Source of the DNA: Nocardioides sp.
GTDB lineage: Bacteria > Actinomycetota > Actinomycetes > Propionibacteriales > Nocardioidaceae
DNA length: 64,000 bases
Direction of reading: 5' to 3'
Assembly (NCBI RefSeq): GCF_035503875.1
Contig: NZ_DATJTA010000022.1
Span: 12,607 to 76,606, forward strand
This document shows, piece after piece, positions 7,096-39,478 of this stretch. Made by a program: the position numbers and the translations under genes. Each line of letters starts with the position of its first letter. Position 1 is the first letter of the stretch. Under the pieces are notes generated by a model. The model saw only the letters and a list, made by a program, of their open reading frames with translations, ran no database searches and was not told the DNA's origin.

Positions 7096-7099
7096 CGCG

Positions 7100-8273: not shown

Positions 8274-9388
8274 GAGGGGGTCACCGCCAGCCGGTAGCCG
8301 CGCTTGACGACCGTCTGCACCGCCTTGGTGCCGAGCGCGGCGCGCAGCCGGGCAACGGCCATCTCGACGGCGTGCTCGGAGCCGGCGGTGCCCGAGGGCA
8401 GCATGGCGAGCAGGGCGCGGCGGGAGACGACGTTGCCGGGGTTGGCGACCAGCGCGTGCAGGACGGCAGTCGGGGCCGGCGACAGCTTCACCTCGACGCC
8501 GTCGAGCAGCACGTCGTCGCCGTGCAGGAGCAGCAGCGCGCCGCTGTCGAGCTCGATCGAGAGGCCCTCACGCCGCGAGGGCAGCTCGACCTCCAGCTGC
8601 TTGATCATCGCCGCGAGCCGCGAGCGCTCGGGCCAGATCGTCGGCACGCCCCACATCTCGAACGCGGCCGCGGTGACCGGGCCGACGCACGAGGCCACGA
8701 CGTCGGCCTGGAAGGCGGTGACGACGTCCTCGCGGCGCCCGGTCACGCCCGCGGCCTCCATCAGCGCCGCGACCGCGGGGGCGGAGGTGAAGGTGACCGC
8801 GTCGAGCTCGCGGTCGGCGATCAGGTCGATCATCCGGAACATCGGCTCGGGGTCCTCGGCACCCGCGACGCGATAGACGGTCACGACCGTGACGTCGGCA
8901 CCCCGGCGGCGCAGGGCGTGGGCGACCATCGAGAGCGACTGCCCATGCTCCTGGACGACGATCCGCAGGCCCGCCAGGTCGCGGCCGCGCAGGTGCTCCA
9001 GCACGTCCTCGAAGCACTCCGACTCGGGCGCCCACATCTCGCGCAGCCCGCGCCGGCGCAGCGCGCCCACCGACTTGGGTCCGCGCGCGAGGATCTCGGC
9101 CGACGACAGGACGGCGACCAGCGGATCGGCGAGCCCCCAGTCGTCGGCGGCGGAGAACCAGGTCCGCATGCCGATCCCGGTCGTCGCGAGGAACATGTCG
9201 ACCGGCCGGGCGAGCACCTCCTCGGTCGCCGCGCGCAGTGACGCGTCGTCGACCTGGTTGGGGTCCTGCGAGAGCGCGGGCGCCCACTCGACGGTCGCGC
9301 CGCGTCTTTCGAGCAGGGCGATCTGCTCCTCCACCTTGCGCGCGGCGGTCACGCCGACGCGGAAGCCGGCGAGGGGCTGGTCGCTCAC
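8270..9388 (-). CDS. Uroporphyrinogen-III synthase (HemD) fused to a C-terminal OmpR-type winged-helix domain
   Basis: ORF 8270..9706 trimmed to GTG 9388 (VSDQPLAGFRVGVTAARK). It has the HEM4 fold (two halves, DAVTFTSAPAV). The C-terminus LDGVEVKLSPAPTAVLHALVANPGNVVSRRALL...AVEMAVARLRAALG..VQTVVKRGYRL is a Trans_reg_C domain. Confidence 0.85.
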   Translation of the reverse strand: MSDQPLAGFRVGVTAARKVEEQIALLERRGATVEWAPALSQDPNQVDDASLRAATEEVLARPVDMFLATTGIGMRTWFSAADDWGLADPLVAVLSSAEILARGPKSVGALRRRGLREMWAPESECFEDVLEHLRGRDLAGLRIVVQEHGQSLSMVAHALRRRGADVTVVTVYRVAGAEDPEPMFRMIDLIADRELDAVTFTSAPAVAALMEAAGVTGRREDVVTAFQADVVASCVGPVTAAAFEMWGVPTIWPERSRLAAMIKQLEVELPSRREGLSIELDSGALLLLHGDDVLLDGVEVKLSPAPTAVLHALVANPGNVVSRRALLAMLPSGTAGSEHAVEMAVARLRAALGTKAVQTVVKRGYRLAVTPS

Positions 9389-17755: not shown

Positions 17756-17885
17756 ACGCTGGTTGAGGTGCGAGCGGAGCGAGCCTCGAAACCCGGTGAG
17801 ACACACGTCGGCCTCGGCTCGGGCTGCTTCTCTGCTCACCGGGTTTCGAGGCTCAGGACTTCGTCCTTCGCACCTCGACCAGCGT
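17756..17885. repeat. Repeat element C: single complete 130-bp hairpin element (best exemplar of the family)
   Basis: ACGCTGGTTGAGGTGCGAGCGGAGCGAGCCTCGAAACCCGGTGAG..(loop)..CTCACCGGGTTTCGAGGCTCAGGACTTCGTCCTTCGCACCTCGACCAGCGT. Confidence 0.9.
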
Positions 17886-23586: not shown

Positions 23587-24000
23587 ATGGCCACCGAACC
23601 CGTCCAGGCACCCAGCAAGGACGACCCCACCATCGGTCGCCTCGTCGCCGACGCGAGCCGCGACATCTCGACGCTGATCTCCAAGGAGATCGAGCTCGCG
23701 AAGTCCGAGCTGAAGGTCAGCGTCAAGGCCGGCGGCCTGGGCGTCGCGATGTTCGCCGCGGCCGCCTTCGTCGCCGTGCTCGCCATCATCATGTTCTCGG
23801 TGGCGCTCGCCTACTTCATCAACTGGAACGGCCAGGGGCTCAGCCTGCACTGGGCGTTCCTGATCGTCTTCGCCCTCTACCTCGGGATCGCCGCGCTGCT
23901 GGTCTTCATCGGCGTGAAGAAGGTCAAGCAGGTCGGGCCGCCCGAGAAGGCGATCGAACAGGGCCGCGAGATCCCCAAGGCGTTCAAGGGCATGGCCTGA
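23587..24000 (+). CDS. Small membrane protein of the actinobacterial holin-X / Phage_holin_3_6-like family
   Basis: 137 aa. The motif IGRLVADASRDISTLISKEIELAKSELK is followed by two TM segments, a pattern conserved in housekeeping contexts in actinobacteria. Confidence 0.7.
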   Translation: MATEPVQAPSKDDPTIGRLVADASRDISTLISKEIELAKSELKVSVKAGGLGVAMFAAAAFVAVLAIIMFSVALAYFINWNGQGLSLHWAFLIVFALYLGIAALLVFIGVKKVKQVGPPEKAIEQGREIPKAFKGMA

Positions 24001-24033: not shown

Positions 24034-24127
24034 CTCACGGGGTTTCGAGGCTCACCCGCTAGCGCGGCTTCGCACCTCAACCAGCGTGGGGCCACCCGCT
24101 AGCGCGGCTTCGCACCTCAACCAGCGT
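24034..24127. repeat. Repeat cluster D: loop plus right arm, then a second right-arm fragment
   Basis: CTCACGGGGTTTCGAGGCTCACCCGCTAGCGCGGCTTCGCACCTCAACCAGCGT is followed by GGGGCCACCCGCTAGCGCGGCTTCGCACCTCAACCAGCGT. The cluster ends exactly at the marP stop codon. Confidence 0.85.
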
Positions 24128-25302
24128 CAGCCGGCGCACTCGCCGGTCGAGACCTCGCTGCTGCGGGCGCGGCCCTCGGCCGCGGTGTCGGCGACCTGCG
24201 CAGCGGTGAGGGCGTAGCCGGTGTCCTTGTCGGTGACCGAGGCGGCGAACACCACGCCGACGACGTCGCCGTCGCGCTCGACGATCGGACCGCCGGAGTT
24301 GCCGGGACGGACGAGCCCGCGCAGGGAGAAGACCTCGCGGATGACCGAGCCGCGGCCGTAGATGTCGGGGGACCGCAGCCGCTGCTCGGCCCGGATCCGG
24401 GCGGCCTGCGCGTCGTACGGGCCGTCCTGGGGGTAGCCCAGGATCACGACCGGGTCGCCCGCCTGGGCACCCTGGTCGAAGCGGAGCGTGGCCCGGCCCT
24501 GCGCGTCGAGCTGCAGCACGGCGAGGTCGAGCTGCGGGTCGTAGAGCACGACCGTGGCGGGGACCGACTCCTCGCCGAGCAGCACCTCGGGATCGTCGAC
24601 GCCGGCGACCACGTGGGCGTTGGTGATCAGCCGGTCCTCGGCGTACAGGAAGCCGGTGCCCTCGACGCCGCGGCCGCAGCGGTTCGTGGCCCGGACCTTC
24701 AGCACGCTCTCCTGGGCGACGCGCACGCGGCGCTTCTCCAGCAGCTTGCTGTCGCCCGGCGCGACCTCGACGATCCGCTCGGGGGCGAACGGCTCGAGGT
24801 AGCGCGGGAAGAAGCTGGTGCCGACGACGTCGTTGAAGGTGCTCAGCACGCCGGGCGCCGACTGCGGCAGCACGCTGTTGACCTTGGCGAGCACCGTCGA
24901 CTCGCGGACCATCGGGGTGACCTGGCCGATCCGGCTGCCGGAGACGGCGACGCCGAGCGCCCACGCGACGAGCAGCACGGCGGCCGCGCTGAGCAACGCA
25001 CCGCCGACGGCGTCGATGGCCCGGATCGGCTGCCAGGTGATCCGGTTGCGGATCCTCGCGCCGACGAACTGGAACAGCGCCTGGCCGAGCGACGCCGCGA
25101 GGATCACGATGAACAGCGCGCCCAGCGAGACCCACGTCGAGGGAGAGGCCTCCCCCAGCGCGACCGGCGCGAGCCAGACCCCGAACAGGCCTCCGAGCAG
25201 CAGCCCCGCAGTCGCGAAGGCGCCTGTGATGAAGCCCTGCCAGTAGCCGGAGAGGGCGTAGGCGACGACCAGGGCCACCAGCAGCCAGTCCAGCAGGTTC
25301 AT
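24127..25302 (-). CDS. marP: MarP-family membrane serine protease (CvpA-like TM domain plus trypsin-like domain)
   Basis: The N-terminus MNLLDWLLVALVVAYALSGYWQGF has four TMs. The protease domain has TNAHVV, DLAVLQ and GNSGGPIV (catalytic triad context). Confidence 0.85.
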   Translation of the reverse strand: MNLLDWLLVALVVAYALSGYWQGFITGAFATAGLLLGGLFGVWLAPVALGEASPSTWVSLGALFIVILAASLGQALFQFVGARIRNRITWQPIRAIDAVGGALLSAAAVLLVAWALGVAVSGSRIGQVTPMVRESTVLAKVNSVLPQSAPGVLSTFNDVVGTSFFPRYLEPFAPERIVEVAPGDSKLLEKRRVRVAQESVLKVRATNRCGRGVEGTGFLYAEDRLITNAHVVAGVDDPEVLLGEESVPATVVLYDPQLDLAVLQLDAQGRATLRFDQGAQAGDPVVILGYPQDGPYDAQAARIRAEQRLRSPDIYGRGSVIREVFSLRGLVRPGNSGGPIVERDGDVVGVVFAASVTDKDTGYALTAAQVADTAAEGRARSSEVSTGECAG

Positions 25303-26024: not shown

Positions 26025-26617
26025 AGCTTGATCCCCAGCTTCGCGTCGACCAGCTCGACCAGCTCCTCGACCGAGTCGATGCCGCCCGCCGTCATCTCCA
26101 CCTCGCCGTCGGCGGTGAGGAAGGCGAAGGCGGGATAGCCACGGGGGCGGATCTCGGTGCCGCTGATGTCGTCACCGGGGTCGGCCAGCTGCGGGTACGT
26201 GGCTCCGGTCGTCCGAGCCAGCTCGAGGGCGAACTCGGGGTAGATGTCCTTCGTGACGCCGACGACCGGCACCTGGTCGCCGTACCGCTCGTGGAACTCC
26301 TGGATGGCCGGCATCTCCTCGCGGCACGGCCCGCACGCGGCGTACCAGAAGTTGACGATCAGCGGCCCCTGCAGCGAGGCCAGGTCGACGTCGGGTCCGC
26401 CACCCAGGCAGGCCAGGGTGAGCTCCGGCAGTGCGCCGTCGGTGCCCTCGCCCGGCACGCAGGTCTCGACGCCGATCTCCTGCTTCAGCGCGCGCAGCTC
26501 GGGGGTGTCGACATCGACGCGCGACGGCCCCGCGGAGCCCGCCGGGCCGGAGTCGTCGTCCGTGCACCCGGTCGCCAGGAGCAGCAGCACCGCCGCCCCG
26601 GCCAGCAGCCGCCTCAT
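26021..26617 (-). CDS. TlpA-like thiol:disulfide oxidoreductase lipoprotein
   Basis: ORF trimmed to MRRLLAGAAVLLLLATGCTDD (lipobox). It has the thioredoxin motif WYAACGPCREE. Confidence 0.8.
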   Translation of the reverse strand: MRRLLAGAAVLLLLATGCTDDDSGPAGSAGPSRVDVDTPELRALKQEIGVETCVPGEGTDGALPELTLACLGGGPDVDLASLQGPLIVNFWYAACGPCREEMPAIQEFHERYGDQVPVVGVTKDIYPEFALELARTTGATYPQLADPGDDISGTEIRPRGYPAFAFLTADGEVEMTAGGIDSVEELVELVDAKLGIKL

Positions 26618-27378
26618 GCACGGCCCTCGGTCTTGACGAGCTTGGCCGCGACCTCCGGATCGGTGGGGCCGGCGCCGTACGCCGGGCACCAGCGCGCGAC
26701 CGGGCACGCCCCACAGGCCGGCTTCTGGCTGTGGCAGCGGCGCCGGCCGTGCCAGATCAGGTGGTGGCTGAGCATCGTCCAGTCGCGCTTGGGGAACAGC
26801 GCGCCGACGGCGTGCTCGACCTTGACCGGGTCGGTCTCCTCGGTCCAGCCGAAGCGTCGGGCCAGGCGGCCGAAGTGGGTGTCGACGGTGATGCCGGGGA
26901 CGTCGAAGGCGTTGCCGAGCACGACGTTGGCGGTCTTGCGGCCGACGCCGGGCAGCTTGACCAGGTCGGCGAGGCGCGGCGGTACCTGGCCGTCGTGGTC
27001 CTCGACCAGCGCGGCGCTCAGCTTGAGCAGCGACTCGGTCTTGGCGCGGAAGAACCCGAGCGGCCCGACGATGCCCTCCAGCGTCGTGCGGTCGGCGGCC
27101 GCCATCGCCTTCGCGTCGGGGTACGCGGCGAACAGGGTCGGCCGCACCGCGTTGACCCGCTTGTCGGTCGTCTGCGCCGAGAGGACGGTCACGACCAGCA
27201 GCTGGAACGGGTCGTCGAAGTCGAGCTCGCAGCGGGCGTCGGGATAGGTCTCCGCGAGCACCCGGTCGATCTTGCGCGCCCGGCGGACCAGGCTCGTGTC
27301 GGGCTTCACGGGCAGGGGGGTCGCGGGCACGGGTTCAGGGTACGGCGACCCACCGACGGTGCCGTCGTCCCCGCGCAC
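26614..27378 (-). CDS. nth: Endonuclease III
   Basis: HhH-GPD motif LVKLPGVGRKTANVVLG and the 4Fe-4S loop CHSQKPACGACPVARWC. The exact start is uncertain. Confidence 0.9.
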   Translation of the reverse strand: MRGDDGTVGGSPYPEPVPATPLPVKPDTSLVRRARKIDRVLAETYPDARCELDFDDPFQLLVVTVLSAQTTDKRVNAVRPTLFAAYPDAKAMAAADRTTLEGIVGPLGFFRAKTESLLKLSAALVEDHDGQVPPRLADLVKLPGVGRKTANVVLGNAFDVPGITVDTHFGRLARRFGWTEETDPVKVEHAVGALFPKRDWTMLSHHLIWHGRRRCHSQKPACGACPVARWCPAYGAGPTDPEVAAKLVKTEGRA

Positions 27379-27489: not shown

Positions 27490-28167
27490 GTGGACAACGA
27501 CGTACTGCGTCAGGCGCCGCTGTTCAGCGCCCTCGACGACGAGGCCGCCACCGCGCTGCGTGCGTCGATGGCCGAGAACCGGCTGCGGCGCGGCGACGTG
27601 CTGTTCCACGAGGGCGACTCGGGCGACAAGCTCTACATCGTCCTCGACGGCAAGGTGAAGCTCGGCCGCACCTCGTCCGACGGCCGCGAGAACCTGCTCG
27701 CGATCCTCGGCCCCGGCCAGATGTTCGGCGAGCTGTCGCTCTTCGACCCGGGTCCGCGCTCCGCGACCGTCACCGCCGTCACCGACGCCGCCTTCGCCTC
27801 GCTCTCCCACGAGGACCTGCTGCGCTGGCTCGAGGGCCGGCCCGTCGTGGCCCGCGGTCTCCTCGCCCAGCTCGCCGGCCGGCTCCGCAAGGCCAACGAC
27901 GTCGTCGCCGACCTGGTCTTCTCCGACGTCCCCGGCCGCGTCGCCAAGGCGCTGCTCGACCTCGCCGACCGCTTCGGCCGCACCGCCGACGACGGCGTGC
28001 ACGTGCACCACGACCTGACTCAGGAGGAGCTGGCCCAGCTGGTCGGCGCCTCCCGTGAGACGGTCAACAAGGCGCTCGCCGACTTCGCCTCGCGGGGTTG
28101 GCTGCGGCTGGAGCCGCGCTCGGTCGTGATCATGGACGTCGAGCGGTTGGCGCGCCGGGCTCGCTGA
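27490..28167 (+). CDS. crp: Crp/Fnr family cAMP-receptor-type transcriptional regulator
   Basis: GTG start after AGGAGGA. It has a cNMP-binding domain (GDKLYIVLDGKVKL..., FGELSLFD) and the HTH motif SRETVNKALADFASRGW. Confidence 0.9.
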   Translation: MDNDVLRQAPLFSALDDEAATALRASMAENRLRRGDVLFHEGDSGDKLYIVLDGKVKLGRTSSDGRENLLAILGPGQMFGELSLFDPGPRSATVTAVTDAAFASLSHEDLLRWLEGRPVVARGLLAQLAGRLRKANDVVADLVFSDVPGRVAKALLDLADRFGRTADDGVHVHHDLTQEELAQLVGASRETVNKALADFASRGWLRLEPRSVVIMDVERLARRAR

Positions 28168-28254: not shown

Positions 28255-29856
28255 CTAGCGCCAGAACACCCACCACAGCACCGGCAGCGCCGAGGCCGGG
28301 ACCGCGAGTACGCCGATGACCCAGTCGCGGCGGGTGGCGGCGTCCCAGTCGGGGACGGGCTCGCGCTCGGCGACAGCCACGTCGCCCGCTGACGCAACCG
28401 GCTGGGTCCGCGTGCCGGGCTCGCAGAGCAGCGGCAGGCCGCAGTCGCCGGGCTCGCCGACGACCTCGGCGACCGCGAGCGGCTCGCCCTCGCCGGTGAT
28501 GGACGACGCGCGGGTGCCCCACGAGGTGTTGCGCTGGGTCAGCATCGCCCAGTAGATCTGCCAGCTGATCACCGCCGAGTAGGCGAACGCGAAGGCGATG
28601 CCGCCCCACCAGTGCGGGCTGCGCTTCACGCCGGCGTACAGCAGCCCGTAGAGGACGGCGACGACCTGCAGGCCGATCAGGTACAGCCAGGGCGAGCCAC
28701 CGAGGAACACCGGCCGGATCACCAGCAGGTGCAGCGCGACGAGCGGACCGAGGAGCTGGAAGGCGACGCTGGCGTACACGGCGAACGACGCGAGCAGCGG
28801 CCACCGCCAGGCGAAGCGGACGACGTAGAGGGTCTCGCGCAGCCAGGACTTCTTCCAGCGCAGCTGCTGGCGCAGGAAGGCCCGCCACCGGTCGGGCACG
28901 AGCGTCGCGCTGACCGCGGTCGACTGGTAGCGCACCTCGAGCCCGCGGCGCAGCAGCGCGTTGGTGAGCGCGCGGTCGTCGCCGAAGGTCGCCTCCTGGC
29001 CGAGGAAGCGCTGGTTCTCCCACTCGGGGAGGACGTCGAGCAGGTCGGAGCGGCGGTACGCCGAGAAGCAGCCCGACGCGCAGGTGACCGCGCCGTACCG
29101 CGACTCGGCCGCCTTGATGACGCGGAACGCCGCGAAGTAGCGGACCTGCTGCAGCCGGGTGAGCAGGTTGGTGCCGGGGTTCTGGACGTCGGCCTGCCCG
29201 GTCACCGCGCCGACCCGGCCGGCCGCGTCGCCGAGGAACGGCTTGACCAGCTCGCGCAGCGCCTGCGGCTCCAGGACGGAGTCGGAGTCGACGAAGACGA
29301 CCAGGTCGGCGCCGTCGGCGGCGCGTACGGCGGCGGCCATCGCCGCGCGCTTGCCCCGGTTGCGGGAGAACCGGATGCCGTCCAGGAGCGGGTGCCGGAC
29401 CGCGCTGGCGCGGATCCGCGCCCAGGTCTGGTCGGTGGAGCCGTCGTCCACGACGACCACCCGCAGCTTCTCGGCCGGGTAGTCGACCCGGAACAGCGCG
29501 TCGATGGTGTCCTCGACGTGTGCCTCCTCGTTGAACGCGGGCACGGCGATCACCAGCGTCGGGAGGTCGGCGTCGGGCACCGTCGTGCGGTCCGGGCGGT
29601 AGAGCGCGGCGAGCCCCACCCGGGTGAGCAGGTACGCCGCCAGCACGTAGGCGTAGACCCGCAGCACCATGCTCGTCGCCAGCGCGTCGCCGACCTTCAG
29701 CGACAGCACGAAGACGAGCAGCGCGGCGGCGTACCCGACGACGGTCAGCCGCCACAGCACGTGCGCCCCACGGACCCGCCCGGACGACGGCGGCGACGAC
29801 GGCGCGGCCGGCGCCGGGACGGCCGAGGCGACCTCGGGCTCGAGGATGGCGGTCAC
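28255..29856 (-). CDS. Membrane-integrated processive GT2 glycosyltransferase, HAS/NodC/chitin-synthase-like
   Basis: Motifs VVVDDGSTD, FVDSDS, FGDDRALTN and QQLRWKKSWLRE (QxxRW) are flanked by TM segments, plus a roughly 90-aa C-terminal tail. The GTG start overlaps the upstream stop (GTGA). Confidence 0.85.
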   Translation of the reverse strand: MTAILEPEVASAVPAPAAPSSPPSSGRVRGAHVLWRLTVVGYAAALLVFVLSLKVGDALATSMVLRVYAYVLAAYLLTRVGLAALYRPDRTTVPDADLPTLVIAVPAFNEEAHVEDTIDALFRVDYPAEKLRVVVVDDGSTDQTWARIRASAVRHPLLDGIRFSRNRGKRAAMAAAVRAADGADLVVFVDSDSVLEPQALRELVKPFLGDAAGRVGAVTGQADVQNPGTNLLTRLQQVRYFAAFRVIKAAESRYGAVTCASGCFSAYRRSDLLDVLPEWENQRFLGQEATFGDDRALTNALLRRGLEVRYQSTAVSATLVPDRWRAFLRQQLRWKKSWLRETLYVVRFAWRWPLLASFAVYASVAFQLLGPLVALHLLVIRPVFLGGSPWLYLIGLQVVAVLYGLLYAGVKRSPHWWGGIAFAFAYSAVISWQIYWAMLTQRNTSWGTRASSITGEGEPLAVAEVVGEPGDCGLPLLCEPGTRTQPVASAGDVAVAEREPVPDWDAATRRDWVIGVLAVPASALPVLWWVFWR

Positions 29857-31700
29857 GAGGCACTCCCCTGCAGCTCGGCGAGACTCCAGATGCTCTGGTC
29901 CTCGCGGCCCAGCCGCCAGAACCCGAGACTCCAGCCGGCCGACGCGGCGAGCGCGGCACGCTGCTGGATGGTGCGCCGGTCGACGTACCAGAGCACCCGC
30001 TGGGCGCCCGGCGCGACCGGGTCGTCGACGGTCAGGACGTTCTCGGCCGACTCCTCGTCGAAGACGTTCGAGGTGAACTCGCCGAAGGCGGAGACAACCT
30101 GCTGGTGCTCACGCGTGGTAGCAGCGCGGTTCAGGCAGACCCAGTCCACGACGAGGGTGCCCGATCCGGGAACCCCCTCGTACGACGTCCGCGCGCGGGC
30201 GGTGCGCGAGGGCACCGGGCAGACCGGCGCGGTCGGGTACGCCGATCCCGGCCAGGCGATCCGGTCGGTGCGGACCACGGTCTCCGACCAGTCCATCGCG
30301 TACAGGTTGGTGCCGAGCGTCAGCTTCTCGACGAGCTCGGGGCGGTCCGCCAGCAGGTCGTGGTAGTAGTCGACGACCGCGGAGAGCCAGCGCAGGTCGG
30401 CCACCGGGCCGGACTCGCTGGTCGACCAGTGCAGGCCCCAGGCCATCACCCAGAGCTCGTCGGCGGCGGCCAGCAGCCGCGGGTAGTCGAAGAGGTACGC
30501 CCGCGGCCGGACCGTGCTCCGCGAGCCCGAGTCGGAGCAGTAGACCGTCGCTCGGGTGAGCGGGTCGGTCGCGGTGCACCAGTTCGCGGAGACCGCGACG
30601 GAGACCAGGCCGCCGTCGGCGTGCACGAGCTCGGAGATCCGCTCGACGTAGGCGCTGTAGCCGTCGCGGATCGCGTCCCAGCGCTCCTGCTTGGTCAGCG
30701 TGCCGGTGCCGACGGTCGGCATGCTCATCTCGAGGTCGAGGCTGGCGCCGTCGTACCCGCCCTCGCGGACGATGGCGGCGACCTGCTCGGCGCCCCGGTT
30801 GCGACGCACGGGGTCGGTCAGCAGCGCCTCGATGACGCCCGGGTCCTCGGAGTGGAAGCGCGGCATGACGCGCACCCCGCGGTCCTGGAACCAGGTCGTG
30901 AGCGCGGGCCGGCCGGTCCCGGAGACGTCGCCGTGACGGGTCAGCTCGAAGAAGGTCGGGAAGACGCGGTCCAGCTGCCGGTAGTGGCGCTGCGCGTCGG
31001 CGAAGGACGCGTCGTCGGTGGTGAGCACGAACGAGCGGTTGTCGCCGGTCGACTGCGGGGGCAGGGTCGTGGCGACGCGGAGGGTGACCGGCGCCGACAG
31101 GTTGCCCGCGCGGTCGCGGGCCCGGACGGAGAACGTGTACGTCGTGCTGGCGCGCAGGTTGCGGGCGACGTACGCCCTGCCGGTCGCGCCGCCGAGCACG
31201 ACGCCGTCGCGGTAGACGAGGTAGCCGGTGACGCCGACCTTGTCGCGCGCGGGCTTCCAGGCGAGCCCGACCTCGCTGCCGGTGCGGGAGGTGGCGACCA
31301 GCCCGGTGGGCGCGGTCGGCGGGGTCTTGTCGAGGCAGGCGCGGGTACGCAGCCGGGCGCTCGGCGACGGGGTGGAGCGGCGGCCGCGGCGGTCGACGGC
31401 CACGGCGCTCAGGACGTAGGTGCGGCCGCAGGCGAGCGACACCGGCACCCGAGAGGTACGGCGGCTGCGCGCGACCGTCTTGCCGCCCGCCTTGATCCGA
31501 TAGCTGACCCGGCCGGAGCCCTTCGAGCGGCCGAAGTCGACCACGGCGCCGGACTGCGTCACGGTCGCAACGGTGAGCGGACCCGGTCGGGCGGGCCGTG
31601 CGGACCGCGCGGCCTCGGCCGGAGCGGTCAGGCCCGGCAGCAGGCTGACGACGAGGGCGGCGACCACGGAGGCGACCCCGGTGACGGCGAAGGAGGGCAC
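29853..31700 (-). CDS. Secreted protein with two fibronectin type III domains and a GH18-like (chitinase-fold) domain
   Basis: ORF 29853..31904 trimmed to GTG 31700 after AGGAG. It has the signal peptide VPSFAVTGVASVVAALVVSLLPGLTAPAEA and FN3 signatures (PPTAPTGL...YLVYRDG...TYTFSVRARDRAGN). The TIM-barrel-like region carries GGYDGASLDLE, resembling the GH18 motif DGxDxDxE. Confidence 0.7.
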   Translation of the reverse strand: MPSFAVTGVASVVAALVVSLLPGLTAPAEAARSARPARPGPLTVATVTQSGAVVDFGRSKGSGRVSYRIKAGGKTVARSRRTSRVPVSLACGRTYVLSAVAVDRRGRRSTPSPSARLRTRACLDKTPPTAPTGLVATSRTGSEVGLAWKPARDKVGVTGYLVYRDGVVLGGATGRAYVARNLRASTTYTFSVRARDRAGNLSAPVTLRVATTLPPQSTGDNRSFVLTTDDASFADAQRHYRQLDRVFPTFFELTRHGDVSGTGRPALTTWFQDRGVRVMPRFHSEDPGVIEALLTDPVRRNRGAEQVAAIVREGGYDGASLDLEMSMPTVGTGTLTKQERWDAIRDGYSAYVERISELVHADGGLVSVAVSANWCTATDPLTRATVYCSDSGSRSTVRPRAYLFDYPRLLAAADELWVMAWGLHWSTSESGPVADLRWLSAVVDYYHDLLADRPELVEKLTLGTNLYAMDWSETVVRTDRIAWPGSAYPTAPVCPVPSRTARARTSYEGVPGSGTLVVDWVCLNRAATTREHQQVVSAFGEFTSNVFDEESAENVLTVDDPVAPGAQRVLWYVDRRTIQQRAALAASAGWSLGFWRLGREDQSIWSLAELQGSAS

Positions 31701-31722
31701 GAGCGAGCTCCTGGGAGTGGGT

Positions 31723-31752
31723 CTGCCCCGGGGGTTCGCACCCCCGGGGCAG
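31723..31752 (-). terminator. Perfect 13-bp hairpin between the Ig-like repeat gene and the GH18-like gene
   Basis: CTGCCCCGGGGGT-tcgc-ACCCCCGGGGCAG sits in the 74-bp intercistronic gap and could be an attenuator, stabiliser or I-shaped terminator. Confidence 0.45.
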
Positions 31753-31774
31753 CCGGGACGGACGAGTGGGTCGC

Positions 31775-32989
31775 TCAGCGCTTGCGCGCCGGCTTCTTCA
31801 CGTTGACGGTGAACTTGACCGGCTTGCCGGTCGAGACACCGTCGGTCGGCCGCAGGGTGAAGGTGTCCTTGCCGGAGAAGCCCTTCTTGGCGACGTAGGT
31901 CCACTTGCCGCCCTTGGAGACGAGCTTGCCCTTCTTGGGCTTGGCGGCCACGACCACCTTGACGGCGTCACGGTCGCCGTCGGTGCAGGTGAGCTTGAAG
32001 GGGACCTTGGTCGCCTTGGAGCGGCCGGCGGAGCGGGCGCTCAGCTTGACCTTGGCCTTGCAGGACGGGATGGCGTTGGTGACCTGGACGGCGAAGGCGG
32101 CCGGCGCGGAGGCGACGAGGCCGTCGGTCGCGCCGAGGGAGAACACGTCCTTGCCGACGTAGCCCGCGGCCGGGCGGTAGGTGGCCGTGGTGCCGGCGAC
32201 GGTGACGGTGCCGTGCTGGGCCTTCGCCACGACCGACCGGGTCAGCGTGTCGCCGTCGACGTCGACGCAGGAGACCGGGAAGGACACGGCGCGGCCGTGG
32301 GTGGTCCGGACGGCGCCGGGAGCGCACGTCGGCGCGGCGTTGGTCACGGTGACCGCGACGGCGGCCGGCTCGGACAGCAGGTCGCCGTCGGTGGCGACCA
32401 GGGTGAAGGCGTCCGCGCCGGTGTAGCCCGGGGCGGGGGTGTAGACGGCCTTGCCGGCGACGATCGCGACGTTGCCGTGCGCGGCGCCCGTCGTACCCGT
32501 CTGGATCTGCAGGGTGTCGCCGTCGGGGTCGGAGCACACGAGCGGGACGGTCAGGGTGGCGTTGTGCCGGACCGACTGCGGGGCCACGGTCGCGCAGACC
32601 GGCCGGTCGTTCTCGATGGTGACGACGGCGGTGGTGACCGGGCTCTCGGCGAGGTCCTCGACGACCGCCTTGAAGGTGAACGTGTCGGTGCCGACGGCGT
32701 TCGCCTTCGGCTGGTAGGTCACCTCGCCCGTGGCGGCGTCGAGGTCGAAGGTCTCGGCCTTCGTCGGTGCGGAGACCACGACGTACTCGTCGACGGCGTC
32801 GCCGTTCGAGTCCTCGCAGTGCAGCTGGTGGGTGGTCTCCTGGGTGCGGGAGGCCTCGAACTGGGCGGACGAGCAGATGATCGAGTACGACGGGCTGGCC
32901 GCCAGGGCGGGGGTACCCGCGGCGAGCAGACCGAGCACGGTCACGGCGGTGGTGCCGAGTCCGATGCGACGAGCCGAGACTGAAGTCAT
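31775..32989 (-). CDS. Secreted tandem Ig-like/cadherin-like (tandem-95-type) repeat protein
   Basis: This is the tail of ORF 31775..34357, from ATG 32989 after AGGAGAG. It has the signal peptide MTSVSARRIGLGTTAVTVLGLLAAGTPALA. Four repeats of about 90-95 aa follow the pattern C..V....L.V.L.C.D.DGD.L......HG.V......Y.P..GY.G.D.F.....DG. Confidence 0.75.
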   Translation of the reverse strand: MTSVSARRIGLGTTAVTVLGLLAAGTPALAASPSYSIICSSAQFEASRTQETTHQLHCEDSNGDAVDEYVVVSAPTKAETFDLDAATGEVTYQPKANAVGTDTFTFKAVVEDLAESPVTTAVVTIENDRPVCATVAPQSVRHNATLTVPLVCSDPDGDTLQIQTGTTGAAHGNVAIVAGKAVYTPAPGYTGADAFTLVATDGDLLSEPAAVAVTVTNAAPTCAPGAVRTTHGRAVSFPVSCVDVDGDTLTRSVVAKAQHGTVTVAGTTATYRPAAGYVGKDVFSLGATDGLVASAPAAFAVQVTNAIPSCKAKVKLSARSAGRSKATKVPFKLTCTDGDRDAVKVVVAAKPKKGKLVSKGGKWTYVAKKGFSGKDTFTLRPTDGVSTGKPVKFTVNVKKPARKR

Positions 32990-33103
32990 GGGAGTTCTCT
33001 CCTGGGAATGGGGGTTCCCCGGTGTTGTCGGCCCGAGCGGCGTGCGCCTGAGGAGATCGGCGGATTCGCTCAGGACCGGTCCGGCAGGACCGATGCCGTA
33101 GCC

Positions 33104-34417
33104 ATGTCGCAGACCCAGGAGCGTCCCACCGCTGCCGCCGCACCCGTGGCGGCCGGCCCTCGGACCGACAGCGCCACGCTCGGCGTCGTCGGCCTGGGGT
33201 ACGTCGGCCTGCCGACCGCCCTCGCGTACGTCGCGGGCGGCGGGCGGGTCATCGGGTACGACGTCAGCGAGCCGCGGCGTACCGCGATCGCGCACGGCGA
33301 GGTCGACCTGCTCCCCCGCGACCTCGACCGGCTGGCCGCGCTGCAGGGCGACGACCGGCTGGTCGTGACGGGCGACGCCGAGCGGCTCGCCGAGGCCGAC
33401 GCGATCATCGTCTGCGTGCCGACCCCGGTCGACCACCACCTGACCCCCGACCTGACCGCGCTGCGTGCCGCCTGCCGGGTCGTCGTCGAGCGCGCCCGTC
33501 CCGGTCAGCTGCTGGTCCTGACGTCGACGACGTACGTCGGCACCACCCGCGACCTGCTCGACGGCCCGCTGCGCGAGCGCGGTCTGGTGCCCGGCGTGGA
33601 CGTGCACGTGGCGTTCTCGCCCGAGCGCATCGACCCCGCCAACGTCGACTTCCCGGTCGAGGCCACGCCGCGGGTCGTCGGCGGGCTCACTCCGGCCTGC
33701 ACCCGGAGCGCGGCGGACGTGCTGCGTCGTACGGCGCCGGTCGTGCACGAGGTCAGCTCGCCCGAGGTCGCGGAGATGACCAAGCTGCACGAGAACACCT
33801 TCCGCGCGGTCAACATCGCCTACGTCAACGAGATGGCCGACGTGTGCCAGCGCCTCGGCCTCGACGTCACCGAGGTGATCGGGGCGGCGGCGACCAAGCC
33901 GTACGGCTTCATGCCGTTCAACCCCGGCCCCGGCGTCGGCGGGCACTGCATCCCCTGCGACCCGCACTACCTGCTGTGGCAGCTGCGCGCGGACCGGGCC
34001 GAGGCACCGGTCGTGGACGCCACCATGCGCGCCATCGCCGCCCGTCCCGGCCGGGTCGTGCAGCGCGGCCGCGAGGTGCTGGCCGAGGCGGGCATCCCGC
34101 TGGCCGGCGCGCAGGTGCTGGTCGTCGGCGTCTCGTACAAGCCGGGCGTCGCCGACGTCCGCGAGTCCCCCGCGCTGGAGATCATCGAGCGGTTCCGGCG
34201 CGGCGGCGCCGAGGTGTCGTACGTCGACCCGTACGTCGACCACGTCGCCCTCGAGGACGGCCTGCTGGCGGGCACCGACCACCCGTGGCGCCGCGCCTGG
34301 GACCTCGTCCTCGTGCACACCCTGCACCCGGGCGAGGACGTCCACTGGCTCTCCCACGCGAGCCGGGTCCTGGACGCGACGTACCGCCTCCCCACCGGGG
34401 TCGGCACCCGCGTCTGA
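33104..34417 (+). CDS. Nucleotide-sugar dehydrogenase (UDP-glucose/GDP-mannose dehydrogenase family; WbpA/TviB-like branch likely)
   Basis: ORF 33008..34417 trimmed to ATG 33104. It has the Rossmann motif LGVVGLGYVGLPTALA and the catalytic region GPGVGGHCIPCDP. It is divergent from the Ig-like/GH18/GT2 operon. Confidence 0.85.
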   Translation: MSQTQERPTAAAAPVAAGPRTDSATLGVVGLGYVGLPTALAYVAGGGRVIGYDVSEPRRTAIAHGEVDLLPRDLDRLAALQGDDRLVVTGDAERLAEADAIIVCVPTPVDHHLTPDLTALRAACRVVVERARPGQLLVLTSTTYVGTTRDLLDGPLRERGLVPGVDVHVAFSPERIDPANVDFPVEATPRVVGGLTPACTRSAADVLRRTAPVVHEVSSPEVAEMTKLHENTFRAVNIAYVNEMADVCQRLGLDVTEVIGAAATKPYGFMPFNPGPGVGGHCIPCDPHYLLWQLRADRAEAPVVDATMRAIAARPGRVVQRGREVLAEAGIPLAGAQVLVVGVSYKPGVADVRESPALEIIERFRRGGAEVSYVDPYVDHVALEDGLLAGTDHPWRRAWDLVLVHTLHPGEDVHWLSHASRVLDATYRLPTGVGTRV

Positions 34418-34427
34418 CCGTCCCCCG

Positions 34428-34716
34428 CCGGTTGAGGTGCGAAGGACGAAGTCCTGAGCCTCGAAACCCGGCGAGTCAACCGACAGCCTCGATCAGCGCC
34501 ACCTCTCGGCAAGACCGGTTTCGAGGCTCGCTCCGCTCACACCTCAACCAGCGTCGATGACCGCTGGTTGAGGCGCGAAGGACGAAGTCCTGAGCCTCGA
34601 AACCCGCTCCAACCGGCAAGACGGGTTTCGAGGCTCGCTCCGCTCGCACCTCAACCAGCGTCCCTCGACGCTGGTTGAGGTGCGAGGAGCGCTAGCGACG
34701 AGCCTCGAAACCCGGT
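34428..34716. repeat. Repeat cluster E: two full hairpin elements (34428-34553, 34562-34660) plus a left-arm half element (34668-34716) overlapping the 3' end of the MBL hydrolase gene
   Basis: The arms are CGGTTGAGGTGCGAAGGACGAAGTCCTGAGCCTCGAAACCC...GGTTTCGAGGCTCGCTCCGCTC(A/G)CACCTCAACCAGCGT. The half element is ACGCTGGTTGAGGTGCGAGGAGCGCTAGCGACGAGCCTCGAAACCC. Confidence 0.9.
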
Positions 34717-35531
34717 GAGCCGGCGAGATACGCCAACTGGGCGCGGACGGACATCTCGGCGGCGAACCACACCGACTGGTCGACGTCGGCGTACACGACC
34801 TCGACGACGCGGCGGGGCAGGGTGTCGTCCTCGGCGAGCTCGGGGGTGAGGGGTACGGCGAGCTCGCGGAGCGCGGACTCGACCTGGCCGAGCCGCTCGC
34901 GGCGGTGCACCAGGTAGTGGTCGAGCACGGCGCCGGCGTCGTCGAGCACGGGACCGTGCGCGGGCCAGATCGCCTCGACCTCGCCGGCGGCGACCAGCGC
35001 GCGCATCTTCTCGATCGAGTCGAAGTAGGGACCGAGCTGGCCGTCGGGGTGGGCGACGACCGTCGTACCGCGGCCGAGGACCATGTCGCCGGAGAGCAGC
35101 GCCTTCTGCGCCGGCAGCACGAGCGAGATGGAGTCGGCGGTGTGGCCGGGCGTCGTGACGACCCGCAGCGCCAGTCCGTCGACGTCGAGGAGCTCGCCGT
35201 CGGCGACCGGGTCCGCGCGGAAGCAGTACGCCGGGTCGAACGCGCGGACCGCGCAGCCCTTGGCCTCGGCGAACGCGACCGCCACCTCGGAGTGGTCGAA
35301 GTGGTGGTGGGTGAGCAGCACCAGGCCGACCTCGCCGGTCTCCTCGACCAGCCGGTCGAGGTGTCCGTCCTCGACCGGACCGGGGTCGATCACGATGGCG
35401 CGGGCGGCGCCGTCGGAGGAGGGCTCGCGCAGCACCCAGGTGTTGGTGCCGTCGAGCGTCATCACGCCGGGGTTGGGCGCGAGCAGGCACTCCGCGCGCG
35501 GCGGGAATTCGCCGCCCGACCAGGGGGTCAC
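34692..35531 (-). CDS. MBL-fold metallo-hydrolase (Rv3677c-like)
   Basis: ORF 34692..36203 trimmed to GTG 35531, which overlaps the upstream stop (GTGA). The sequence reads VTPWSGGEFPPRAECLLAPNPGVMTLDGTNTWVL and carries the metal motif THHHFDHSE. Confidence 0.85.
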   Translation of the reverse strand: MTPWSGGEFPPRAECLLAPNPGVMTLDGTNTWVLREPSSDGAARAIVIDPGPVEDGHLDRLVEETGEVGLVLLTHHHFDHSEVAVAFAEAKGCAVRAFDPAYCFRADPVADGELLDVDGLALRVVTTPGHTADSISLVLPAQKALLSGDMVLGRGTTVVAHPDGQLGPYFDSIEKMRALVAAGEVEAIWPAHGPVLDDAGAVLDHYLVHRRERLGQVESALRELAVPLTPELAEDDTLPRRVVEVVYADVDQSVWFAAEMSVRAQLAYLAGSPGFEARR

Positions 35532-36394
35532 CCGCGGCGTTCCTTCAGCAGCGGCCGGAGCCGGTCGGGCATGGAGAGGGTCCAACCGTCGCCGAGCGGC
35601 TCGACGCTCGGCGTGAACATCTCCACGCTCCGCCCGGCCGCCACGTCGAGCACCTCCGCCGGGGAGGCGTGGGTGCCGATCTCGAGGCTGGTGAGGTACG
35701 TCGGCGGCATCAGCGCGAGCTCGCCCGCCTCGGCCTGGTCGGCGGCGACCCGGGCCGGGAGCCAGGTCACCGAGGACGACTCCGTCGACACGTCGCGGGT
35801 GCGCTGGCCCTCGGGCAGCAGGGCGACGAAGAACCAGGTGCGGAACCGCTTCGGCTCGAAGATCGGCGTCAGCCAGGCGTCCCAGACGCCGAGCAGGTCG
35901 GTGCGCAGCACCAGCCCGCGACGGTTCAGGAAGTCGGTCATCGCCAGCTCGCGCGACTCCAGGGCGACCCGGTCGGCCTCCCAGTCGGGGCCGGTGGTGT
36001 CGGCCACGACGGTCGTCGCGGAGGTGCCGGCGAGCAGCACCCCGGACTCCTCGAAGGTCTCCCGCACCGCTGCGGCGACCAGGGCGCGGGCGGTCTCCTC
36101 GTCGCAGTGCAGGCGCGCGGCCCACTCGGCGGGCGATGGTCCCGCCCAGCCGACGGTGGCGTCGAAGTCGCGCGGGTCCACGCCGCCGCCCGGGTAGACG
36201 CACATGCCCCCGGCGAAGTCCATCGTCACGTGGCGACGCATGTAGTAGACCTCGGGTCCCTGCTCCGAGGGACGCATGAGGACGACGGTCGCGGCGTCGC
36301 GCGGCTCGACCGGCGTACGGCGGCCGTCGTCGTACTCCTGCGCGACGGCGACGATCTTCTCGGGCAGCGGGACGGGGGGCAGCGGGATGCGCAC
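35528..36394 (-). CDS. NUDIX-family hydrolase-like protein
   Basis: ORF trimmed to GTG 36394, 3 nt after the RidA stop. It has a Nudix-like segment GGGVDPRD...AAVRETFEESGVLLA. Confidence 0.75.
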   Translation of the reverse strand: MRIPLPPVPLPEKIVAVAQEYDDGRRTPVEPRDAATVVLMRPSEQGPEVYYMRRHVTMDFAGGMCVYPGGGVDPRDFDATVGWAGPSPAEWAARLHCDEETARALVAAAVRETFEESGVLLAGTSATTVVADTTGPDWEADRVALESRELAMTDFLNRRGLVLRTDLLGVWDAWLTPIFEPKRFRTWFFVALLPEGQRTRDVSTESSSVTWLPARVAADQAEAGELALMPPTYLTSLEIGTHASPAEVLDVAAGRSVEMFTPSVEPLGDGWTLSMPDRLRPLLKERRG

Positions 36395-36396
36395 CC

Positions 36397-36855
36397 TCAG
36401 ACTTCTACCAGGATCTCCACCTCGACGGGGGCGTCGAGTGGGAGCGCCGGGACTCCGACCGCGGAGCGGGCGTGGACGCCCGCGTCGCCGAAGACCTTGC
36501 CGAGCAGCTCGGAGGCGCCGTTGGCGACGCCGGGCTGGCCGGTGAAGTCGGGCGTGGAGGCCACGAACGCGACCACCTTCACCACGCGCTTCACCTGCGA
36601 CAGGTCGCCGAGGACGCTGCGCACGGCCGCGATCGCGTTGAGCGCGCACTGCTGGGCGCACGCGTAGGCCTCCTCCGCGGAGACCTCGCCGCCGACCTTG
36701 CCGACCGTCATCAGCTCGCCCGAGCGCATCGGCAGCTGGCCCGAGGTGAAGACCTGGTTGCCCGAGCGGACCGCCGGGACGTACGCCGCCACCGGGGCCG
36801 GCACCTCGGGGATGCTCAGGCCCAGCTCGGCCAGGCGCTCCTCCGGGGTGGGCAT
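36397..36855 (-). CDS. RidA/YjgF family protein
   Basis: 152 aa, with the typical RidA C-terminus ARSAVGVPALPLDAPVEVEILVEV. Confidence 0.9.
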   Translation of the reverse strand: MPTPEERLAELGLSIPEVPAPVAAYVPAVRSGNQVFTSGQLPMRSGELMTVGKVGGEVSAEEAYACAQQCALNAIAAVRSVLGDLSQVKRVVKVVAFVASTPDFTGQPGVANGASELLGKVFGDAGVHARSAVGVPALPLDAPVEVEILVEV

Positions 36856-36856
36856 C

Positions 36857-37015
36857 TCAGCCCTCCAGCGGGCGCTTGAAGTAGCCCACGAGGTTCTCCG
36901 GGCTCATGCCGGGCGCGATCTGCACCAGCTCCCACCCGTCGGAGCCGAAGTTGTCGAGGATCTGCTTGGCCGCGTGCGTGAGGATCGGCGCGGTGAGGTA
37001 CTCCCACTTGGTCAT
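36857..37015 (-). CDS. DUF4177 domain protein (52 aa; absent from the supplied ORF track)
   Basis: My own translation is MTKWEYLTAPILTHAAKQILDNFGSDGWELVQIAPGMSPENLVGYFKRPLEG. The stop TGA at 36859-36857 lies 1 nt from the RidA start, and the position is Rv3678A-like. Confidence 0.75.
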   Translation of the reverse strand: MTKWEYLTAPILTHAAKQILDNFGSDGWELVQIAPGMSPENLVGYFKRPLEG

Positions 37016-38949: not shown

Positions 38950-39478
38950 CGATCGACGCCGACTCTCGGCCCACCGGGTTTCGAGGCTCGTCGCTAGCGC
39001 TCCTCACACCTCAACCAGCGTGGACGCCGACGACGCTGGTTGAGGTGCGAGGGCCTCCAGGCCCGAGCCTCGAAACCCGTCTTGCCGACCGACGACCACG
39101 ACCGACGCCGACTCTCGGCCCACCGGGTTTCGAGGCTCGTCGCTGGCGCTCCTCACACCTCAACCAGCGTGGATCTCCTCGTCGCTGGCGCTCCTCACAC
39201 CTCAACCAGCGTGGACGCCGAGGACGCTGGTTGAGGTGCGAGGGCCGCCAGGCCCGAGCCTCGAAACCCGTCTTGCCGACCGACGGCCCCGATCGACGCA
39301 GACTCTCCACCCACCGGGTTTCGAGGCTCGTCGCTAGCGCTCCTCACACCTCAACCAGCGTGGATCTCCTCGTCGCTGGCGCTCCTCACACCTCAACCAG
39401 CGTGGACGCCGAGGACTCTGGTTGAGGTGCGAGGGCCGCCAGGCCCGAGCCTCGAAACCCGTCTTGCCGACCGACGAC
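38950..39478. repeat. Repeat cluster F: higher-order tandem array with an exact 191-bp period (left arms start at 39033, 39224, 39415)
   Basis: Each unit is one full hairpin element plus an extra right-arm fragment. The full element has a left arm with cassette GGGCC(T/G)CCAGGCCCGA and a right arm with cassette CGTCGCT(A/G)GCGCTCCTC. The extra fragment is GGATCTCCTCGTCGCTGGCGCTCCTCACACCTCAACCAGCGT. Confidence 0.9.

Follow-up and report, generated by a model that had tools for sequence, protein, structure and literature searches.

The 64-kb stretch of Nocardioides DNA analysed here (contig NZ_DATJTA010000022.1; hereafter the window) carries a 6.2-kb cassette of four genes at positions 28255-34417. 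They encode a membrane synthase of glycosyltransferase family 2 (GT2), an exported protein with fibronectin type III (FN3) modules and a domain resembling glycoside hydrolase family 18 (GH18), a secreted protein with immunoglobulin (Ig)-like tandem repeats, and a nucleotide-sugar dehydrogenase. The gene model combined codon-position GC content, Pfam matches and independent gene calls on the identical public contig (Table 1); for the dehydrogenase, the longest open reading frame (ORF) begins at 33008 and homologues favour the start at 33104. The G+C content of the cassette region is 72-75%. The source is Nocardioides: its synthase shares 86% identity with the N. lianchengensis enzyme and 77% with the N. 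caeni enzyme, and its Crp protein matches that of N. lianchengensis at 100% identity. A preliminary description of the region, made from the sequence alone, had listed these genes together with a GTGA stop/start overlap between the GH18-like and synthase genes, a bounding "repeat cluster E", and a backbone of crp, metallo-beta-lactamase-fold (MBL) hydrolase, RidA and DUF4177 genes, as in mycobacteria (Rv3677c-Rv3678A). Every one of these features was found in the sequence: the overlap at 29856-29853, the cluster as a real repetitive extragenic palindromic (REP)-like array, and the backbone with an extra NUDIX gene.

The synthase contains the motifs D190-S-D192, G292-D-D-R295, Q330-x-x-R-W334 and W446-G-T-R449, which are invariant in 44 homologues and align residue for residue with those of the hyaluronan synthases (HAS) XlHAS1 and CvHAS. 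These motifs are common to NodC and chitin synthases, and are necessary, not sufficient, for a HAS. Hydropathy and an AlphaFold2 (AF2) model (mean predicted local distance difference test, pLDDT, 86.3; predicted TM-score 0.88) gave two N-terminal transmembrane helices, a C-terminal transmembrane bundle and one extra C-terminal helix. In a Foldseek search with this model ranks 1 to 13 were occupied exclusively by XlHAS1 and CvHAS (E 1e-16 to 1e-23, TM-score ~0.5-0.65), with BcsA and chitin synthases behind them, and the best sequence matches in the PDB were also hyaluronan synthases. The best NCBIfam match, NodC (TIGR04242), reached 193.1 bits (cut-off 550), and PgaC (TIGR03937) reached 137.7 bits (cut-off 422.3). 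By BLASTP, relatives from the loci described below, with sequences taken from annotated records, scored 271-353 bits, compared with 180 bits for the functional HasA of Bacillus cereus pBCXO1 (37% identity over 318 residues), 171 bits for NodC of Rhizobium etli (33% identity; rhizobial NodC overall 28-33%) and 113 bits for Escherichia coli PgaC. The synthase is thus modelled as a class I hyaluronan synthase and falls in no curated family. Many members of its family carry the automated JGI name "hyaluronan synthase", a label that is probably wrong.

The dehydrogenase matched the nucleotide-sugar dehydrogenase subfamily TIGR03026 at 347.8 bits, above the cut-off of 189.8. Its nearest equivalog models were those for UDP-N-acetylmannosamine dehydrogenase (WecC), at 206 bits against cut-offs of 459 and 750, while NCBIfam models for UDP-glucose dehydrogenase scored 45-136 bits. 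The same order was seen in the PDB (4r16, 189 bits; Cap5O, 164 bits; UDP-glucose dehydrogenase, ~114 bits) and by BLASTP (E. coli WecC, 183 bits; pBCXO1 HasB, 103 bits; E. coli Ugd, 80 bits), and this bias towards WecC and Cap5O over UDP-glucose dehydrogenases holds for every module-linked dehydrogenase tested. A 99%-identical protein bears the automated JGI name UDP-N-acetyl-D-glucosamine dehydrogenase. The protein therefore resembles a cytoplasmic NAD-dependent nucleotide-sugar 6-dehydrogenase of the WecC/WbpA branch, acting on UDP-N-acetylhexosamines (UDP-HexNAc), and not HasB or Ugd. A nucleotide-sugar dehydrogenase had been described here beforehand; the enzyme is present, and its similarity is to the UDP-HexNAc branch, not the UDP-glucose branch. 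UDP-N-acetylglucosamine (UDP-GlcNAc) is the most economical predicted substrate, because a search of the 10 kb around each locus in the synthase clade found neither WecB (UDP-GlcNAc 2-epimerase) nor GalU.

In the hydrolase, a signal peptide or membrane anchor at the N terminus is combined with two FN3-like modules and a divergent, YaaH/SleL-like GH18 catalytic domain. Pfam fn3 matched at 46.6 bits and Glyco_hydro_18 at 27.3 bits, just under its gathering cut-off of 29.6, a value exceeded by homologues in two other loci (57.0 bits in L013 and 34.9 bits in L091). An AF2 model of residues 225-615 (pLDDT 91.5; E100 below is numbered within this domain) matched GH18 chitinases, SleL and YdhD in Foldseek with E values from 1e-17 to 3e-20 and identities of 12-18%; 4wiw came first (E 3e-20), followed by 5jh8. 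No variation was seen among 28 homologues at G94, D98, E100, Y243, D246, W247 and W371, and D93 is conserved in at least 90% of them. The window protein has the motifs DGASLDLE, where D98 and E100 form the D-x-E, and YAMDW (Y243, D246, W247), and the middle Asp of the GH18 DxxDxDxE motif is replaced by Ser. We are confident that the predicted fold is a GH18 (beta/alpha)8 barrel with the catalytic D-x-E kept, so that the earlier label "GH18-like" is borne out by fold and catalytic residues, though not by the Pfam score. Catalysis in GH18 uses the substrate's own N-acetyl group and needs a beta-linked N-acetylhexosamine at the cleavage site. Neither LysM nor any other recognised peptidoglycan-binding module was detected by Pfam in the hydrolase, which has the FN3 modules instead; some members of the family are nevertheless named "spore germination protein YaaH" by automated annotation. 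A profile search of 1.84 billion representatives with an alignment that kept the FN3 columns (A2) was dominated by giant FN3-repeat proteins, which makes its counts meaningless for the GH18 subfamily; at least ~30 of its top 150 matches were clusters of full-length, ~600-aa hydrolase orthologues.

The Ig-repeat protein consists of four tandem Big_9/cadherin-like Ig-fold repeats (Pfam Big_9, 135 bits in four stretches; NCBIfam tandem-95 repeat domain, 110 bits) behind a signal peptide ending in ALA|AS, and its gene contains a DNA repeat family (D2) with a period of ~270-280 nt.

Table 1. Features of the cassette and its surroundings in the window (strand: +, forward; -, reverse;., not stranded).
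Feature	Position	Strand	Description
nth	26614-27378	-	Flank
crp	27490-28167	+	Pfam cNMP_binding and HTH_Crp_2; backbone flank, outside the module
GT2 synthase	28255-29856	-	533 aa; Pfam Glyco_tranf_2_3, Glycos_transf_2, Chitin_synth_2
FN3 + GH18-like exported protein	29853-31700	-	615 aa; Pfam fn3, Glyco_hydro_18
Intercistronic stem-loop	31723-31752	-	RNA folding of the 74-nt spacer
Big_9/cadherin-like tandem-repeat protein	31775-32989	-	404 aa; Pfam Big_9; first gene of the three-gene string
Divergent intergenic (promoter) region	32990-33103	.	Between Ig-repeat and dehydrogenase genes; from sequence
NDP-sugar dehydrogenase	33104-34417	+	437 aa; three UDPG_MGDP_dh Pfam domains
REP-like palindromic repeat cluster	34427-34714	.	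Repeat analysis
MBL-fold hydrolase	34692-35531	-	Pfam Lactamase_B; backbone flank, outside the module
NUDIX	35528-36352	-	Between MBL and RidA
RidA	36397-36855	-	Flank
DUF4177-like ORF	36857-37015	-	52 aa (MTKWEYLTAPIL...); directly after RidA

Four genes inherited and relocated as one unit

The contexts of the cassette in other genomes were traced through the Crp and synthase proteins of public assemblies, and three arrangements were distinguished. In the window, in two N. lianchengensis loci (L002 and L083) and in L082, the cassette lies between crp and the MBL gene; on a short contig (L084) the synthase also comes after crp, as in the window. In two more distant Nocardioidaceae (L089 and L090; synthase identity 68% by tblastn), the MBL and crp genes are directly adjacent, ~20 bp apart, and the cassette is found ~4 kb away, flanked by a CvpA-trypsin gene and a holin_3_6 gene, which in the window (24127-25302 and 23587-24000, respectively) are neighbours of each other. 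In N. caeni (L088) the cassette has unrelated surroundings, with SURF1, crgA and pknAB nearby. The internal architecture is identical in the three contexts, with the dehydrogenase gene divergent from the Ig-repeat gene, which is followed by the GH18-like and GT2 genes.

The crp gene also adjoins the MBL gene in Kitasatospora (L098). The adjacency in this genome and in L089 and L090 indicates that it is the common state and that the arrangement of the window is derived, in agreement with the proposal that a block had been inserted into the backbone. The four genes have been inherited and relocated as one unit, and their arrangement is beyond chance, since it recurs in other genomes and at other genomic locations. 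The reading of the block as a module also holds, both for the gene order in these contexts and for the three enzyme genes, which co-occur in distant Actinomycetota (see below).

No direct or inverted repeats bracketing the cassette were found, and no integrase or transposase Pfam families were present among the genes called around it in L082, L083, L088, L089 and L090. REP-like clusters occur at both alternative cassette sites in the window genome (24039-24125 and 34427-34714), the former between the holin_3_6 and CvpA-trypsin genes, that is, at the exact cassette site of L089 and L090.

Two further features were seen in these loci. In L082 and L083 (10830-12685) a gene for an extracytoplasmic function (ECF)-type sigma factor and a 455-aa gene, a pair absent from the window, are inserted between crp and the synthase gene; the product of the 455-aa gene has no Pfam hit and is possibly an anti-sigma factor. 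In L089 (4981-6316) the cassette dehydrogenase was called only as a 161-aa fragment, with tblastn similarity continuing upstream, which reflects either a pseudogene or long-read frameshift errors in this metagenome-assembled genome (MAG).

A conserved core beyond the genus and its sister modules

One genome per GTDB species was scanned with the synthase alignment, the flanks were compared by tblastn and clustering, and assignments were confirmed by Pfam. The census comprised 26 loci that are not of the Nocardioides type and whose synthase is at least 42% identical to that of the window; several contigs are truncated and the counts are lower bounds. These loci came mainly from Solirubrobacteraceae, Miltoncostaeaceae, Acidimicrobiales, Spirillospora and uncultured Actinomycetota, and some from Elusimicrobiota, Acidobacteriota and Verrucomicrobiota. 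The dehydrogenase gene was linked to the synthase gene in at least 16 of the 26, usually immediately upstream and co-directional, sometimes overlapping, and a full FN3-GH18-like gene was linked in at least 12. Additional partners were a deacetylase of carbohydrate esterase family 4 (CE4), found in at least 14 loci and usually encoded directly after the synthase, and GlmS, in at least five. No GH18-like gene was linked in the loci with synthase identity below 42%, and a dehydrogenase match, a partial one, was found in only one of them (L021), and therefore the linkage is specific to this synthase clade.

Dehydrogenase, synthase and GH18-like hydrolase make up a core whose conservation extends far beyond the genus. 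Each of the six complete Nocardioides-type cassettes obtained from other genomes (L002, L082, L083, L088, L089 and L090) encodes the Ig-repeat protein, as does a near-identical contig (L001), with lengths of 392-503 aa across these cassettes. The protein was not found in the more distant loci; by these comparisons it is a lineage-specific add-on outside the core. Thus, of the co-occurrence of four families anticipated in the preliminary description, the three enzymes are co-conserved in distant Actinomycetota and the Ig-repeat protein is confined to Nocardioides-type cassettes.

The closest locus outside Nocardioides (L003, Miltoncostaeaceae; 54% synthase identity) has a divergent dehydrogenase gene followed by GH18-like, GT2, CE4, a second GH18 and GlmS genes. 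The CE4 proteins of the relatives resemble the deacetylase domain of PgaB, and some synthases are fused to CE4 (P0088 and P0090); the window synthase has no CE4 domain. On a megaplasmid of Paenibacillus cellulositrophicus, a member of the Bacillota (NZ_CP045296.1; L091, 5520-13186), genes for CE4, dehydrogenase, PilZ-GT2, a second CE4 and GH18 stand in a row. The dehydrogenase is an intact 414-aa ORF (7049-8293) missing from the PLSDB gene table, and the GH18 protein is more distant, matching the window hydrolase family with an hhalign probability of 99.1%. The N-terminal PilZ domain (27.4 bits, cut-off 22.5) was found on this synthase homologue only and suggests control by cyclic di-GMP.

A Gram-negative relative, an Acidobacteriota MAG (L009, 12904-17052), has the synthase gene followed by one for a 1382-aa protein in which Pfam recognised a fusion of TPR and CE4, reminiscent of a PgaA/PelB-type export scaffold joined to a deacetylase. 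Large proteins of the same cluster also occur in L007, L015, L019 and L051.

Dehydrogenase orthologues with 58-64% identity are also found in Streptomyces, Kitasatospora, Mycolicibacterium and Cryptosporangium, each together with a divergent Chitin_synth_2-type GT2 gene and a CE4 gene (L098, 8001-15993, from Kitasatospora sp. McL0602, CP197246.1; L097, L099 and L100; Streptomyces record CP108109). These sister triads differ from the window cassette in having no GH18-like or Ig-repeat gene. The two sister GT2 proteins checked, from Streptomyces and Kitasatospora, are 30-33% identical to the window synthase, have TDR instead of GDDR and lack WGTR. In Kitasatospora the triad and a gene for a 3keto-disac_hyd-like protein of 292 aa are located immediately upstream of crp-MBL, as a second independent module abutting crp. 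An intrinsic tie of the module to crp was considered and dropped as a general rule, as the module abuts crp in Kitasatospora but not in N. caeni, Streptomyces or Cryptosporangium.

Predicted polymer and alternative explanations

The overall logic of the cassette is, by analogy, that of a synthase-dependent exopolysaccharide system that mixes traits of has operons, poly-N-acetylglucosamine (PNAG) systems and chitin metabolism. With has operons (Streptococcus hasABC, pBCXO1 hasACB) and the Chlorella virus and vertebrate HAS it shares a single-domain membrane GT2 with the four motifs and a HAS-like predicted fold, a nucleotide-sugar 6-dehydrogenase gene beside the synthase gene, and predicted coupling of polymerisation and translocation. 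It differs in its WecC/WbpA-like dehydrogenase, with bit scores that do not indicate a linked UDP-glucose 6-dehydrogenase of the HasB type, in the lack of hasC, and in the GH18-like, CE4 and Ig-repeat proteins added in the cassette or its relatives. Since the dehydrogenase is WecC/WbpA-like, the predicted chemistry moves away from that of the classical has operon.

The PNAG systems (E. coli pgaABCD, staphylococcal icaADBC, Streptomyces matAB) are likewise based on a GT2 that makes a GlcNAc polymer in a synthase-dependent manner, with a dedicated hydrolase function in the C-terminal domain of PgaB and with a PgaB-N-like CE4 that, in relatives of the cassette, is sometimes fused to the synthase as in MatB. 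In contrast, no PgaD or IcaD is linked to the cassette, the PgaC score is below those of NodC and HasA, the dehydrogenase has no PNAG counterpart and the window lacks CE4. PNAG hydrolases belong to GH153 or GH20, while that of the cassette belongs to GH18. MatB, compared here with the cassette by description only, is a GT2-CE4 fusion whose closest characterised relative is PgaC and whose partner is MatA (PMC5972031). NodC and chitin synthases share with the synthase the best NCBIfam match, Chitin_synth_2 and the GDDR, QxxRW and WGTR motifs; the NodC score far below the cut-off, the low identity, the HAS-like membrane layout, the linked dehydrogenase and the lack of a nodAB context set it apart from them. 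The partner from the chitinase family GH18 suggests beta-GlcNAc linkages in the product. The pairing of a processive GT2 with a cognate secreted glycoside hydrolase is also found in bcsA/bcsZ, cslA/cslZ, pelA and Listeria pssC/pssZ, to which the PilZ domain of the Paenibacillus homologue adds a further likeness, whereas the YaaH-like GH18 with FN3, the lack of a BcsB-like or PilZ component in the window and the predicted acidic HexNAc polymer differ from these systems.

Our preferred explanation, which we consider probable, is that the cassette is a self-contained synthase-dependent system for an extracellular or cell-surface acidic beta-glycan that contains GlcNAc and is trimmed by a hydrolase of its own; the acidic polymer possibly contains N-acetylglucosaminuronic acid (GlcNAcA). 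The dehydrogenase would oxidise a cytoplasmic UDP-N-acetylhexosamine at C6 to the uronic acid, with UDP-GlcNAc as the likeliest substrate, giving UDP-GlcNAcA. The HAS-like GT2, with one catalytic domain and its own transmembrane channel, would polymerise this donor, alone or alternating with UDP-GlcNAc, and extrude a beta-linked acidic HexNAc polymer. The FN3-GH18-like enzyme would be produced in fixed proportion to the synthase through the stop/start overlap, and may act outside the membrane and cut or remodel the chain next to beta-GlcNAc by substrate-assisted catalysis, setting its length or releasing it, as the hydrolases BcsZ, PgaB (C-terminal domain), PelA and PssZ do in other synthase-dependent systems. 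In Nocardioides-type cassettes the secreted Big_9 repeat protein would serve as a matrix component or adhesin, binding or organising the chain, and in most other lineages the PgaB-like CE4 would de-N-acetylate the polymer and GlmS raise the supply of UDP-GlcNAc.

More tentatively, we propose as a possible specific product, made by the core with CE4 and GlmS in many lineages, poly-N-acetylglucosaminuronic acid ("chitouronic acid") or a hyaluronan analogue alternating GlcNAc and GlcNAcA. It would be synthesised by a single HAS-like enzyme, be trimmed by a dedicated new GH18 subfamily, and serve as a widespread matrix material in soil Actinomycetota, among them Nocardioides, Solirubrobacteraceae and other Thermoleophilia, as well as in some Bacillota; the sister modules are those of Streptomyces, Kitasatospora and mycobacteria.

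Several observations weigh against the preferred explanation. Neither the substrate of the dehydrogenase nor the sugars and linkage used by the synthase can be read from sequence, and the WecC-like branch also holds the glucose-nucleotide dehydrogenase CalS8. The nearest folds of the hydrolase include the spore-cortex N-acetylglucosaminidases SleL and YdhD, which makes peptidoglycan a possible alternative substrate. Neither PilZ nor any other recognisable regulatory domain is present in the synthase, tblastn with CE4 and GlmS proteins from the relatives gives no match anywhere in the 64-kb window, a strong stem-loop separates the first and second genes of the putative three-gene string, and the matrix or adhesin role of the Ig-repeat protein is purely inferential. 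In CvHAS, Lys177 and Arg341 recognise glucuronic acid (GlcA) (PMC12987647). Their counterparts in the synthase family, K169 and R333, are invariant. Residues of this type are general to the HAS/chitin-synthase fold, and the GlcA contacts were for that reason discarded as a discriminator of the product.

The alternatives differ mainly in the role they assign to the dehydrogenase and the hydrolase. Synthesis of a neutral GlcNAc homopolymer, either chitin- or chitosan-like (beta-1,4) or PNAG-like (beta-1,6; PgaCD, Ica, MatAB), with the dehydrogenase serving another pathway or a minor decoration, would fit the PgaB-N-like CE4 encoded directly after the synthase in 14 relatives, the synthase-CE4 fusions, the linkage of GlmS in five relatives and the classical cleavage of beta-1,4-GlcNAc by GH18 enzymes. 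MatB, itself a GT2-CE4 fusion, makes PNAG (PMC5972031). We consider this unlikely, because the dehydrogenase is the most consistent partner of the synthase, often overlapping or abutting it, and travels with the Nocardioides-type cassette; moreover, the PgaC model scored below the NodC model (138 vs 193 bits), E. coli PgaC reached only 113 bits, and PgaD, searched for at the loci of the clade, was not linked. No GH18 enzyme is known to cleave beta-1,6-GlcNAc, which counts against the PNAG-like form. A genuine hyaluronan system, or another GlcA system such as one for cellubiuronic acid, in which UDP-glucose would be oxidised to UDP-GlcA and GlcA alternated with GlcNAc as by HasA, is rather unlikely in our view. 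It would explain the class I HAS matches in structure and PDB sequence, the identity to functional pBCXO1 HasA, the JGI names and the place of CalS8 in the dehydrogenase branch, and the linkage of GlmS fits it too, for the has operon of Streptococcus zooepidemicus carries UDP-GlcNAc supply genes. It is opposed by the dehydrogenase, closer to WecC than to HasB or Ugd as are all the module-linked ones tested, by the lack of a linked hasC or galU, and by CE4 and GH18 partners foreign to has operons, that of pBCXO1 comprising hasA, galU and a dehydrogenase gene only. The synthase is also equally far from NodC and HasA (171 and 180 bits), and no actinobacterial HAS appears in the HAS review PMC10939387.

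The closeness of the hydrolase to SleL and YdhD and the YaaH names could instead point to a wall-associated secondary glycopolymer, similar to teichuronic acid, for the export or anchoring of which the GH18-like enzyme would open peptidoglycan as an N-acetylglucosaminidase. The host is a monoderm with a thick wall, which a nascent chain must cross. We regard this as quite unlikely: the hydrolase has FN3 and no LysM or other peptidoglycan-binding module, and its translational coupling and co-conservation with the synthase fit an enzyme directed at the polymer, yet are compatible with a wall role. Finally, it is highly improbable that the synthase makes short NodC-like chitooligosaccharide signals, or that the four genes are mere neighbours sharing no function. 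NodC is the best NCBIfam match, but its score is far under the cut-off, the model has HAS-type transmembrane architecture, and the window contains neither a nodA/nodB-like context by Pfam nor a tblastn match to NodB; mere adjacency is contradicted by conservation of the unit in three contexts and across phyla.

The preliminary description had not recognised the combination as a characterised actinobacterial system, and no description of it was found in searchable open-access full text, including work on bacterial chitin synthases (PMC5122149) and MatAB (PMC5972031). It is also absent from a classification of HAS (PMC10939387), a survey of bacterial hyaluronan sources (PMC9676211) and a study of Actinoplanes exopolysaccharide clusters (PMC13390465), and no description of the actinomycete dehydrogenase/GT2/CE4 triads was found either. 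If the preferred explanation is right, the few known synthase-dependent bacterial polymers (cellulose, PNAG, Pel, alginate, hyaluronan and curdlan) would be joined by an acidic HexNAc polymer that abundant soil lineages produce. A HAS-like enzyme taking an N-acetylated uronic acid donor would be of use for glycosaminoglycan engineering, the hydrolase would represent a new GH18 specificity, and the compact four-gene cassette would be easy to express in another host. Genetics is feasible, since the cassette is also present in the N. lianchengensis type strain, CGMCC 4.6858. The labels "hyaluronan synthase" and "spore germination protein YaaH" in databases should be taken as putative only.

Non-coding elements of the cassette region

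The REP-like family occurs at five intergenic sites of the window (7170-7655, 17758-17883, 24039-24125, 34427-34714 and 38975-39461), and its units GCTGGTTGAGGTGCGA and GAGCCTCGAAACCCG match 25 and 19 times, where chance would give 0.04 and 0.36 matches. The cluster beside the cassette lies between the convergent dehydrogenase and MBL genes and overlaps the last 23 bases of the latter.

The Crp box TGTGA-N6-TCACA has no match in the cassette and occurs in the window less often than expected by chance; direct regulation of the cassette by Crp, for which the sequence gives no support, was dropped. Consensus scans for promoters and terminators between 27300 and 35000 found nothing, a result that says little for an actinomycete with 73% GC.

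The stem-loop in the spacer between the Ig-repeat and GH18-like genes is perfect, GC-rich and without a T-run, and the 74-nt spacer folds at -48.9 kcal/mol (z = -3.9). In the homologous spacers of L002, L082 and N. caeni (L088) the stem is kept and is built from different sequence. It could serve as an attenuator or affect RNA stability, and so set the amount of Ig-repeat protein relative to the enzymes.

Within the divergent promoter region there is an inverted repeat, CCTGAG-N16-CTCAGG, at 33047-33074. Five Nocardioidaceae loci share the sequence CCTGAGGA and, upstream of it, GTCGGC. Four of them also retain the second arm of the inverted repeat, which has one mismatch in L002 and L082. The inverted repeat is a candidate operator or 5'-UTR hairpin.

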